A stretch of DNA of 32,000 nt from Chloroflexota bacterium (GTDB lineage: Bacteria; Chloroflexota; UBA11872; VXOZ01). Below are positions 12,868 through 16,059 of the stretch, in pieces (position 1 is the stretch's first letter; every line of letters begins with the position of its first letter). The stretch spans positions 755,377-787,376 of the forward strand of contig OZ219801.1 in the NCBI GenBank assembly GCA_964291655.2, in the 5' to 3' direction. Made by a program: the position numbers and the translations under genes. The notes beneath the pieces are model-generated. The model did no database searches. It saw only the letters and a program-made list of their open reading frames with translations, and was not told the DNA's origin.

Positions 12868-15800
12868 TTAACCATCGCCCGGATCTGGCGTGGGTGTCGG
12901 CGTCGGTGTTGGTGTAGGGGTTGGTGTTGGGGTTGGGGTCGGTGTAGGTGTAGGCGTAGGTGTAGGCGTAGGCGTAGGCGTAGGTGTAGGCGTAGGTGTA
13001 GGCGTGGGCGTCGGTGTAGGCGTAGGCGTCGGTGTAGGCGTAGGCGTCGGTGTAGGCGTAGGCGTCGGTGTAGGCGTAGGCGTCGGTGTAGGCGTAGGCG
13101 TCGGTGTAGGCGTAGGCGTCGGTGTAGGCGTAGGCGTCGGTGTAGGCGTAGGCGTCGGTGTAGGCGTAGGCGTCGGTGTAGGCGTAGGCGTCGGTGTAGG
13201 CGTAGGCGTCGGGGCACTCGGACACGTAAAGTTGTATGTGTTTGAACTGCCCCATTCCGACCATGCCGCCCGGTACGTTTCGCCATCGCCGTACGCTTTC
13301 ATTCTTGCAAATGCAAGCAAGGTGTTGCCGGCTTTGCTCGGCCAACAAATCATGTGGAACGTAGCTGGCACCCTTCCCCCCGCCAGGTTGGTGAAGCCAC
13401 CGCCACCGGTGGTATTTAACTCAGCTTTGGTGATCCCGCTCGGCAGTTGGTATGACCAACTGAGCTTGACTACGGGTTGCGTCGGCCAGTAGTCAAACAA
13501 CGCATGCACGATGGAGTGACTAAGCCCTTGCACAACTGGCGCCGGGGGCAGTGGCAGTTCTTCTCCTGATGGCGTTGGCGTAGGCGTTGGTGTGAGCGTA
13601 GACGTCGGTGTAGGCGTTGTCCCCGGTACTAACGTGGGTGTGGGTGTTAGAGATGGAGTTGAGGTCGGCGTGGCGCGGACAGGGCAAGTTACGGAAATGG
13701 ACCGCGTAGTTCCCGGGCCAAATTCAGGAAGATAAACTTCGGCATCGCCCTTTGCCGAAGCCGTGACCGTGTAGCTAAAACTCTGACCACTTTGGCTGGG
13801 TGAACAAACAGGCACACTATGGTTCGACGCTTTACTGCCCGTGCTCGATTGCCTTGACCAGGCTTCAGACAGGAGGTTGCCGCTAAACTTTATAGACTTG
13901 ACCCCGTTAACATAAGTCAAAGATGCAACGACAGTGATACCGTAGTCATCGTGACTCACATCCCTTGAGGAGCTTGACAGGGAGAGCGAAGGCGCTGGTG
14001 GGGCAGTCAAGAGCGGCTGCGATGGATCTCGCGGGCACAGAACGGTGACCCTGGCAGTTGGGCTCCACCCAGTCCATACGGACTGGTACTTTTCTCCATC
14101 ACCAAGCGCATCAACACTTATGCCGAATTTCCTGATTTTGCCAGCTTCGCTGGGCAAGCACACCTCGATGCTCGTGGTAGGCGATTGTCCCGCTCTCCAG
14201 TAGATTACCCCACCGATGCCAGTAGTCTTTATTTGGGAGATTCCTGCCGGCCACGAATAGCTCCAACTGACCCTCACTGTAGGAAGGGTCGACCACGCCT
14301 CGTGGTTCGCTGCGATCACACTGTAGCCAATTGACGCCACAACATCCGGTGGGTTAGGCAATGCGCCAGGCACCGGGGTCGGTGTCGGCGTGGGTGTAGG
14401 TGTCGGCGTTCGAATCGGTGCATTCGGACAGGTGAATTGCGCAGAGGCACTTGGACCCCATGTAGACCATTCCGCCCGGTAATTTACTCCATCGCCGAAT
14501 GTCTGCAATTGAATATTGGGTGTTCTCGACTGGCCGGCATGCCCCGGCTCGCAGAATCCAATTACATAGCTCGGCGTTTGTCCCGCAGACCAACTCGAGA
14601 CATGATGTCCCCGAGACCTAACCTGGCTGACTCCGCTCGGCCACGAAAATGCGTACGTGACCAACATGGTTGGCCGCCCATCCCACGCGTTGTAGGCTTC
14701 TTCAATGAGTTGACTGCTCACGGACCCTGAAATAACTGGCGGCAGCGTCAGATTCGGATTTGGCGTGGGCGTTAGTGTGGGTGTCCCTCCCGGAACCAAC
14801 GTGGGTGTGGGTCTCGGCGTGACATCCGGACGGCTCGGACATACTACTGCCAAAGTTTGATTCGAACTCCAGGCACCATAGTCGGACCGGTAGGTCACAC
14901 CGTCGCCAAGTGCGCTCGCAACCAATCGGAATGACTTCGTGGTACCGGCTTCGCTAGGAAGGCACACTACAAGGCTATCTGTGAAATCTCTTTCCGCTGT
15001 CGACTCGGACCATGCCCCGCTTTTGCCCTCGATGAAAAGGTACTTTATTTTGGTGACCGAATCCGGCCACAAGACACTCGCCTTAATCGAATAGACTCCA
15101 AGATTCGACCAAGACTGATAGTTCGCATCAATTATGCGAGCGCTAAGGGACAGCCACGGAGCAGGTGGGTAGGGCAGGATCGGAGTTGGCTCGGGCTCGA
15201 GAATAGGTAATGGCGGGAGGTTACTTGTACACACCACAGCCTTGCCGGCACTCGAACTCCAGGGACCATAGTCGGCCCGGTAGGTCACACCATCGCTAAA
15301 TGCCCGCGCAACCAATTGGAATGACTTCGTGGTACCGCCTTCGCTCGGGAGACACACTGCAGTGCTCTTAGTAAACGAACGTCCCGCTGCCGAGGTAAAT
15401 CTCCCCCCGCCCCCTTCGAAAATATACTCTATCTTTGTTACAGAATCTGGCCAAACAACATTCGCATCAATTGACCAGTAAGGCCGATTCGAACTTGCAT
15501 ATAGATACTCATCAATTATCCAAGTGGTGATGGAAACCCACGGAGCCGGAGGCAACGGCAAGACATCCACCTTCGGGATTATCGGTGATGGCAAGGGCGC
15601 AATTGGAGGTGTGGAGGAAGCATTACTGGGGCCGGGTACAGCGACTGGCTGAGGCGATGCTGTCCTATCACCTTCGGACGCAACGTAGTCCGCTTCCCAG
15701 GAAAACCGCTCTGTGTTTAGGCGCTGCTGCAGGCCGTTCGGGCCGTTGACCCACGTACGGTGCCCGTCGGTAAAGGCGGTAAAGTTGTCGGCTTTGCGCC

Positions 15801-16059
15801 AGACCAGAAGACCGCCGGTTGTAAGTTGCGTGCTGTCACCGTGTTCGCTGTAACTCTCGTTTACTAAACACTCACCCACGGCATCATGGCCGATGAGATC
15901 ACGTAAGGTCTTGAACCCAAGTACAATCTCGCAATCGCTAGCCGCAACCGACGAGAGAGTCAGGGTAGTAACGGCCAACCCTAACAAGAGTCCTAAAGTA
16001 GCGCGCCACACTCGTTCCCGCACCACCCCAACCTCTCTTGCACACTCTTCCGGCTTCAA
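12868..16059 (-). CDS. secreted or cell-surface modular protein: signal peptide, N-terminal ~85-aa domain, six tandem two-Cys modules with P/T-rich linkers, C-terminal (Thr-Pro)n tail
   Basis: 1063-aa ORF. Hydrophobic leader [26 protein letters not shown] likelier start is GTG at 16026 or 16023, preceded by GAGAGG. The six modules share W..SW.P.V..I....W.AG......VC.PS.AG.....F.....GDG..YR..W..W......V.CP. The tail is about 115 residues of TP dipeptides ending TPDPGDG-stop. Confidence 0.9.
13011..13208. repeat. 11 perfect tandem copies of an 18-bp unit (tcggtgtaggcgtaggcg) inside the TP-tail coding region
   Basis: Counted directly. Units start at 13011, 13029, 13047 and so on to 13191. Degenerate copies extend the PT-coding tract to about 12886-13215. 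Confidence 0.97.

Follow-up and report, generated by a model that had tools for sequence, protein, structure and literature searches.

A conserved N-terminal domain joined to divergent FN3-type modules and a Thr-Pro tail in a predicted secreted protein of a Chloroflexota bacterium

Sponge symbionts are enriched in proteins with fn3, LRR, NHL and cadherin domains, and fn3 is especially abundant in their Chloroflexota (PMC8163846, PMC9531527). The route by which such eukaryote-like proteins are exported has been described as unclear (PMC8163846, PMC9531527), and conventional secretion systems are mostly absent (PMC8163846). In Bifidobacterium longum, an FN3 protein of the PFNA operon carries cytokine-receptor motifs and has been proposed to bind a host cytokine (PMC10688814, PMC8430577). 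The present analysis concerns a gene of a Chloroflexota bacterium, located on a stretch of 32,000 nucleotides (GenBank assembly GCA_964291655.2, contig OZ219801.1, positions 755,377 to 787,376) that is referred to as the window. The gene lies on the minus strand (Table 1) and encodes a protein with a leader resembling a signal peptide, an N-terminal domain with two cysteines (N-domain), six two-cysteine modules (M1 to M6) and a C-terminal tail of Thr-Pro (TP) dipeptides. To our knowledge, the mechanisms of envelope anchoring in Chloroflexota are poorly understood and essentially unknown.

The organization of this protein is best explained, with a probability of roughly 0.55, by a Sec-exported, rod-like extracellular protein in which the N-domain provides targeting or anchoring, the FN3-like modules form an adhesive or mimicking array and the TP tail acts as a spacer. 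The N-domain, located at the mature N-terminus, would target or anchor the proteins that share it by binding to a single invariant partner; the likeliest candidates for this partner are a scaffold and a constituent of the cell's own envelope. Each module would be stapled by a disulfide between its two cysteines, and the array would form an elongated surface for adhesion or host mimicry, of the eukaryote-like protein type known from sponge symbionts. The tail would act as a rigid spacer or brush and may carry O-linked glycans. If the N-domain anchors the protein, a C-terminal anchor becomes unnecessary and nothing is needed after the TP tail. The N-domain is the most distinctive and novel part of the protein. 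The earlier note on this DNA, which was made from the letters of the stretch, passed over it as a side matter; it plausibly supplies the targeting or anchoring that this note had found missing.

A first homology search recovered six proteins that share the modules and more than 110 others that share residues 41-125 only, with 60-79% identity. This region, the N-domain, shows about 75% identity across more than 100 protein clusters whose C-terminal regions are unrelated. The copy in the window is 66-80% identical to 31 family members and retains all 28 invariant columns, which include C3 and C24; three invariant tryptophans and many invariant polar residues are also found. The domain starts right after the signal peptide with the signature C-x-[FI]-x-[LRF]-G-F ... 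G-x-C ... DNxTAFTDG ... LN[TSA]ERFxWE. The mature N-terminus of these proteins reads A-[D/E]-C, and the domain is followed by EADYAPGG, usually a linker of Pro, Thr and Ala, and an unrelated payload. In a census of 51 members, Pfam recognized LRR in five payloads, DUF6782, a putative metallopeptidase, in three, GSDH, NHL and DUF4352 in two each and the propeller PD40 in one, leaving about two-thirds unmatched. One protein (P0129) carries the N-domain at its C-terminus and two others (P0007, P0008) carry it twice in tandem, and the domain therefore appears to work independently of position. A weak transmembrane-like segment follows it in only 3 of 118 family members.

A scan of genome contigs covering one genome for each of 185,579 species located the N-domain at 366 loci. 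The best 80 of these all belong to about 15 metagenome-assembled genomes (MAGs) of Chloroflexota, and at least nine copies per genome were counted within these best 80 of the 366 loci. N-domain paralogues are often tandemly arrayed, with two adjacent genes on the same strand at 11 of 78 loci (L008, L016, L018, L023, L027, L029, L041, L043, L044, L060 and L063). No further gene with an N-domain or module occurs inside the window. Paralogues within a genome share 82% protein identity, and the values between genomes are equal. Identity at codon positions 1, 2 and 3 amounts to 86, 91 and 57%, and to 51% at four-fold sites, again the same within and between genomes. This rules out gene conversion as the cause of the conservation. 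The combination of low silent-site identity and high protein identity therefore indicates old paralogues under purifying selection.

A second homology search recovered 423 short proteins of 92-154 residues that consist of a signal peptide and the N-domain alone. These stand-alone copies come partly from other Chloroflexota MAGs, one of them named Dehalococcoidia, and are 54-71% identical. Some of the genes for the short proteins P0238-P0357, at loci L082-L086, lie on long contigs, and one of them has a Gmad2 gene directly downstream. Three stand-alone genes were inspected and are genuine genes on contigs from unrelated samples; no conserved partner gene was found beside them in these three contexts. 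The two homologue searches appear to have covered proteins of 524-1149 residues (950-residue query) and of 92-154 residues (88-residue query); with N-domain proteins of about 155-520 residues outside these length bands, the family is larger than the 166 and 423 clusters counted.

This distribution argues for a localisation module, because the N-domain is joined to many unrelated payloads including enzymes, is independent of position and sometimes occurs in tandem. It is also extremely conserved next to fast-evolving payloads in family members that have no other anchor, and it is found in other Chloroflexota that seem to lie beyond the lineage from sponges and corals. If the Chloroflexota with stand-alone copies are free-living, this further argues against a sponge-specific ligand. 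A broader interpretation can be offered only tentatively. The N-domain might mark an undescribed surface-display or sorting system specific to Chloroflexota, a counterpart of SLH, LPXTG and dockerin, with dozens of clients per sponge or coral symbiont genome, including LRR, NHL and FN3-type proteins. The protein in the window would then be one such client, displaying its FN3-like array and TP tail.

The occurrence of many paralogues with one extremely conserved domain, together with the existence of stand-alone N-domain proteins, would also suit a structural building block of the envelope, for example a subunit of an S-layer, sheath or fibril, in which the N-domain would be a shared polymerisation or docking unit. 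The acidic character of the domain, the FN3 arrays with putative disulfide staples and the limited general understanding of anchoring in Chloroflexota envelopes fit this explanation as well. However, structural subunits are normally conserved, yet the module array is 35% identical at syntenic loci and mosaic. The LRR, NHL, propeller and enzyme payloads are not structural proteins, and no self-assembly motif was recognized. A structural role is thus improbable.

Export by the Sec route is indicated by the leader, which has a basic n-region (RERVWR), a hydrophobic h-region of 16 residues and a c-region (SSVAAS) followed by DC. A hydrophobic leader with an AxA end is present in 116 of 118 N-domain relatives, and the N-domain begins 1-3 residues later. 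The secretion proposed in the earlier note is therefore upheld, with a canonical leader and an AxA-type cleavage site. The leader end (...SSVAAS-DC; ...VAAA-EC or ...SLAA-DC in relatives) does not conform to the lipobox [LVI][ASTVI][GAS]C, because Asp or Glu precedes the cysteine, which a lipobox does not allow. The signal peptide is the only hydrophobic segment of the 1063-residue protein, and no hydrophobic window occurs beyond residue 40. A GAGAGG motif resembling a Shine-Dalgarno sequence is positioned 5 nt upstream of a GTG at 16026, and the leader lengths of homologues fit a start at this codon. This GTG, which would give a protein of 1052 residues, is likely the true start rather than the TTG. 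The protein counted from the TTG contains 15 cysteines, one upstream of the likely start, C43 and C64 in the N-domain and twelve in six pairs. Scans for promoters and terminators gave signals no higher than expected from shuffled sequence.

Neither the whole protein nor any of its parts, searched separately, matched a Pfam or NCBIfam family at E<=10. The best sub-significant Pfam scores were those of PF22323 for the N-domain (E 0.07) and of FlaF_Ig-like (0.045) and Y_Y_Y (0.076) for single modules. Pfam and NCBIfam matches to SLH, LysM, CWB2, LGFP, SH3b and PG_binding were likewise absent at E<=10. A profile of the N-domain found nothing among the sequences of the PDB at E<=10, the LGFP domain included. 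In a fold search against the PDB the best match had an E value of 0.1, and the LGFP domain 6swz ranked third (E 0.37). The best AlphaFold2 model of the N-domain, with a predicted local distance difference test score (pLDDT) of 91.9, consists of a short helix and six strands. No description of the N-domain or of the module family was found in the literature.

The modules were analyzed for their relationship to known folds. An alignment of 28 instances from seven proteins, the protein in the window and its six homologues, yielded an AlphaFold2 model with a pLDDT of 94.1 and a predicted template modelling score of 0.80. The predicted module has seven beta-strands and a short helix after strand A, in agreement with the beta-sandwich proposed earlier. 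Both cysteines, one tyrosine and a leading leucine are invariant in the 28 instances, and P4, P5 and the G-D-G motif are at least 90% conserved. The module profile was searched exhaustively against 1.84 billion representative proteins. This search recovered a tight family of about 12 representatives, below which giant repeat proteins are ranked. Those checked are arrays of Pfam fn3 domains, with 15 stretches in P0125, 11 in P0130, 7 in P0139 and 5 in P0144. The profile matches P0125 at E 2e-36 and also the other three. Positions 18-116 are in register with the fn3 repeats and a motif A-x-GDG-x-x-Y-x-x-x-W is common to both. Profile comparison thus points to homology with bona fide fn3 domains that is detectable through these Pfam-certified arrays.

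The predicted structure points in the same direction. The top 50 Foldseek matches in the PDB are dominated by FN3 domains, mainly from class I cytokine receptors (the thrombopoietin, erythropoietin, growth-hormone and interleukin receptors) but also from fibcon and titin. Their probabilities range from 0.84 to 1.0, yet the best E value is 5e-3 and the template modelling (TM) scores are 0.31-0.47. In a profile search of PDB sequences an FN3 domain of the thrombopoietin receptor was matched (E 1.2e-3), aligned over its WSAWS motif. At the positions of the FN3 hallmark residues, the module alignment has a tryptophan in strand B of most but not all modules, Phe or Tyr where strand F begins, and C-x-P in the E-F loop. 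Profile and model together suggest that the module is a strongly diverged FN3-type domain that in shape comes nearest to those of cytokine receptors and has an invariant cysteine pair in addition. One of these cysteines directly follows strand E and the other lies where strand G ends. Given the usual arrangement of FN3 strands, both would be expected at the same pole, and a disulfide between them is plausible. The structure model, Foldseek search and family-profile search that had been proposed as checks in the earlier note thus yielded FN3 domains as leading matches and a small number of tight relatives. Its statement that the module cannot be assigned to a named family stands insofar as no curated model recognizes it. 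The kind of domain can be named, since profile and fold matches indicate a divergent FN3 type.

Of 54 distinct modules, 18 have a motif W[SGT]xW[SG] in the region between strands F and G, compared with 0.15% in shuffled sequences, and 10 have a strict WSxWS. The motifs of M3, M4 and M6 are degenerate (Table 1), and M1, M2 and M5 have none. These similarities bring in the main rival explanation, a released effector or decoy directed at the host. Its WSXWS-like modules would imitate receptor or matrix domains of animals and bind factors of the host, and the N-domain would be a lectin for host glycans or an oligomerisation module. Cytokine-receptor FN3 domains are the nearest structural neighbours, and a bacterial FN3 protein with cytokine-receptor motifs has been reported to bind TNF-alpha (PMC10688814). 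Sponge symbionts are rich in fn3, LRR and NHL proteins, for which an action on the host has been proposed (PMC9531527, PMC8163846). Moreover, the three invariant tryptophans and many invariant polar residues of the N-domain would suit glycan binding, and the fast evolution of the array fits a host interface. However, the WSXWS-like motif is present in only one third of the modules and no strict WSXWS occurs in the window. The N-domain is found, at 54-71% identity, in other Chloroflexota, including stand-alone copies on long contigs from unrelated samples, which would make a sponge-specific ligand unlikely. It is also joined to enzymes (GSDH, putative metallopeptidase) as well as to binding repeats, which is typical of localisation modules. 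A released effector is thus considered rather unlikely, and a structural envelope role or an artefact or pseudogene less likely still.

The open reading frame (ORF) described earlier, with its six two-cysteine modules and linkers rich in Pro and Thr, is present in full. Delimited by the cysteine pairs, which are spaced by 40-41 residues, the modules measure about 113 residues, and their individual scores against the family profile range from E 1e-32 to 1e-38. Protein identity between modules is 24-38%, with M1 and M2 as the exception (Table 1). The earlier estimate of 85-90% DNA identity between M1 and M2 at an offset of 390 bp proved accurate, as positions 14862-14970 and 15252-15360 are 88.1% identical without gaps, and other offsets reach at most 38%. 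In comparison with the closest homologue, P0001, orthologous modules share 86-91% DNA identity and paralogous modules 62-75%. The duplication had been called recent; in fact it predates the split from P0001. M1-M5 are collinear with P0001 at 75-87% identity. M6 has its nearest kin not in P0001, which is 70-75% identical, but in the last two modules of the gene at the syntenic locus L081 (53% and 47%). Gene order is kept in L081, where the flanking proteins are 75-93% identical and the gene in the same slot is 35% identical; its N-domain shares about 74% and its modules about 30% identity. Sequence comparison thus indicates that the module array is fast-evolving and mosaic.

The protein ends in TP dipeptides, as first noted, with a pure run followed by five residues (Table 1). 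The DNA of this tail, at 12899-13212, comprises 17.4 copies of an 18-nt unit, with 93% matches. In every examined relative whose C-terminus is intact, the sequence closes with a TP run of 3-54 dipeptides, the longest being that in the window, and a short acidic or Pro-containing end. The closest homologues, P0001 and P0004 (...TPTPTPNPS and stop), have short versions. Longer tails comprise 10 dipeptides in L007, 12 in a second frame of L081 (ending ...TPEPSE), 22 in L006 (ending ...EPSS) and at least 26 in L030. A one-off local expansion is ruled out by the long tails of L006, L007, L030 and the frameshifted L081 gene. What had been regarded as an unusual terminus is therefore a family trait of hypervariable length, and tail length varies among relatives by expansion and contraction of the in-frame 18-nt repeat. 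No conserved terminal motif or hydrophobic segment follows the TP run in the family members examined. Signals of the LPXTG/sortase, PEP-CTERM or GlyGly-CTERM type are not found at the end ...TPTPDPGDG, and the NCBIfam models of sorting domains are silent. Together with the lack of a hydrophobic segment past the leader, this bears out the earlier observation that a C-terminal anchor is absent.

A tail of this kind also raises the question of a decaying or mis-assembled repeat gene. A tandem repeat of 314 bp is hard to assemble from short reads, a transposase gene is located 5 kb away, and frameshifts inside TP-linker DNA split the syntenic gene of L081 (P0003; 10001-13386) as well as a gene of L025 (2899-6253). 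In L081, two further modules and the TP tail mentioned above are encoded in the second frame; these frameshifts could reflect sequencing error, pseudogenisation or slippage-driven switching. The ORF in the window, however, is intact across 3.2 kb and its six modules keep all invariant residues. With module identities of just 24-38%, an assembler could not have collapsed or duplicated them, and long TP tails are also found in chromosome-level MAG assemblies (L006, L030). An artefact or pseudogene is thus very improbable.

Several points weigh against the favoured explanation of an exported protein localised by its N-domain. We infer the targeting or anchoring function, and with it a putative ligand, from sequence. 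The AlphaFold2 models of the N-domain disagree (pLDDT 92, 83, 55, 53 and 51), and the domain is acidic, with a mean net charge of -4.4, unlike basic binders of wall polymers such as SLH. If the N-domain is proximal to the cell, the TP tail, devoid of features, would form the distal tip, an unusual arrangement for an adhesin. For the modules, the curated Pfam fn3 model (PF00041) gives no match at E<=10 to the whole protein or to single modules, and the fold matches of the modelled domain are weak. Alignment of the module profile by hhalign to single sequences of human FN10 and tenascin FN3 was not significant, so that it is intermediate sequences and fold matches that connect the module to FN3. 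Disulfide formation, glycosylation and expression are putative. The habitat of the source is likewise judged from relatives, with L081 at 77-88% DNA identity to the window.

Those relatives whose source is traceable derive from sponge metagenomes and, in one case, apparently from a coral. The element Plut_ in one MAG name presumably stands for Porites lutea. The jk18x7bins MAGs were obtained from the sponge Ircinia cf. reteplana (PMC9531527), and the SB0662 series consists of sponge bins (PMC7883664). By this comparison, the Chloroflexota bacterium studied here is probably associated with a sponge or coral.

The gene had been placed in a sugar-modification cluster. This proves to be only a loose neighbourhood of such genes, which is syntenic in L081; the closest homologue, P0001, is found in an unrelated context, adjoining a type I restriction-modification system and a resolvase. 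The GT-C enzyme about 10 kb away (Table 1) resembles protein O-mannosyltransferases and is a candidate for glycosylating the Thr-rich linkers and the TP tail. The DDE transposase gene (PF13751, PF05598, PF01609; 5728-7425, minus strand) is located in a patch of 68% GC, compared with about 58% in the window, and is missing from the syntenic locus L081. An ORF on the plus strand at 5446-7689 was rejected as a gene, being the antisense of the transposase gene. An ORF of 598 residues without a Pfam match (7701-9497, minus strand) is 83% conserved in L081, which has an extra ORF of 612 residues, also without a Pfam match, between it and DegT; this ORF has no counterpart in the window. A conserved block at 18501-27511 encodes a PF04143 sulfur-transport protein and ThiF-family E1-like, Uma2 endonuclease-like, NAD-synthase-like and NYN-TPR proteins, and the version in L081 also has TusA, a JAB peptidase and Rrf2. 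This content suggests a sulfur-carrier or ubiquitin-like modification cluster. A gene for an MT-A70 family (N6-adenine) methyltransferase is located near the window end (30479-31111, plus strand).

Table 1. Features of the gene and its neighbourhood, in window coordinates; residues are counted from the TTG. aa, amino acid residues.
Feature	Position	Strand	Residues	Remarks
Whole ORF	12868..16059	minus	1063 aa	stop codon within coordinates
Sec-type signal peptide (predicted)	15940..16059	minus	aa 1-40	sole Kyte-Doolittle 19-residue score >1.6
N-terminal two-Cys domain (N-domain)	15685..15939	minus	aa 41-125 (85 aa)	leader domain common to secreted Chloroflexota proteins
Pro-rich linker	15562..15684	minus	aa 126-166	
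M1, FN3-like	15217..15561	minus	aa 167-281	Cys236/Cys277; 87% identity to P0001 module 1
M2	14827..15177	minus	aa 295-411	Cys366/Cys407; 60% identity to M1
M3	14416..14751	minus	aa 437-548	Cys503/Cys544; WSXWS-like motif WSTWG
M4	14023..14361	minus	aa 567-679	Cys634/Cys675; WSXWS-like motif WTGWS; module used for structure model
M5	13672..14010	minus	aa 684-796	Cys752/Cys792; subtype without second Trp
M6	13210..13557	minus	aa 835-950	Cys905/Cys946; WSXWS-like motif WSEWG
C-terminal tail	12871..13209	minus	aa 951-1063	pure (TP)54 at aa 951-1058, then DPGDG and stop
GFO/IDH/MocA oxidoreductase	16215-17243	minus		Pfam
MR/MLE enolase-type enzyme	11542-12681	plus		Pfam
DegT aminotransferase	9969-11315	minus		Pfam
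GT2 glycosyltransferase	4647-5282	plus		Pfam
Sulfatase	2732-4180	plus		Pfam
GT-C (glycosyltransferase) PMT_2/TMEM260-like enzyme	919-2493	minus		Pfam

The N-domain is a compact and extremely conserved domain that has no curated family and tags a large and diverse set of secreted symbiont proteins. If it is a localisation module, it would provide a handle to define the displayed or secreted proteome of these symbionts directly from sequence, and its ligand could be revealed by fusing the domain to a reporter. It would possibly represent a first means of envelope anchoring in Chloroflexota. With its hypervariable TP tail and its fast-evolving, mosaic array, the locus is a candidate surface facing the host or phages under diversifying pressure.

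Among known systems, the N-domain resembles the SLH, LysM, CWB2 and LGFP repeats and dockerin in that one conserved module is linked to many unrelated secreted payloads, with several copies per genome. It differs from them in lacking any sequence match, in being acidic and not basic, and in being usually present as a single copy. The LGFP domain of MytA from C. glutamicum (6swz), a weak fold match, has a similar pattern G-x-x-x-x-E...G...Q...G-x-L-x-W by eye, which serves as a lead only. In the TP run, the protein resembles the PT-box linkers of actinobacterial glycoside hydrolases and the wall-spanning, Pro-rich regions of Gram-positive surface proteins, which are extended (TP)n or (PT)n stretches and are O-glycosylated in Actinobacteria. 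The run of 108 residues described here differs in its position at the extreme C-terminus with only 5 residues after it, in its purity and in its hypervariable length among relatives.

The membrane-proximal FN3 domains of class I cytokine receptors (thrombopoietin receptor 8u18/8vu5, EpoR) provide the best fold and PDB-sequence matches to the module and have W-[SGT]-x-W-[SG] at the same place between strands F and G. The protein in the window is bacterial, however, lacks a D1/D2 pair with a four-cysteine D1, and has neither a transmembrane segment nor box motifs. With E values of about 1e-3 to 5e-3 the matches are marginal, and the resemblance is confined to the F-G region, short of a cytokine-receptor homology domain; it may be an ancestral FN3 feature or convergence. 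The FN3 protein of Bifidobacterium longum, likened here by description only, belongs to another phylum and has a different architecture without an N-domain, cysteine pair or TP tail. The fn3 (PF00041) arrays of bacterial surface proteins, the eukaryote-like fn3 proteins of sponge symbionts, share the seven-strand beta-sandwich of about 100 residues that is predicted here, the tandem arrangement, Pro/Thr linkers and Sec export. A leading P-x-x-P, the F-strand pattern V-x-A...G-x-G and homology at the profile level are also common to both, as is the ecological setting, given the enrichment of fn3 in sponge Chloroflexota (PMC8163846). The module differs from these arrays in its invariant cysteine pair, its LPxPP start, the short helix after strand A and the GDGxxY motif, as well as in the silence of the Pfam fn3 model at E<=10 and the handful of tight representatives among the 1.84 billion proteins searched. 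We regard the module as a new and strongly diverged branch of a known fold, occurring in proteins whose ecological class is likewise known. Because of this divergence, censuses based on Pfam miss it and underestimate the number of FN3-type eukaryote-like surface proteins.

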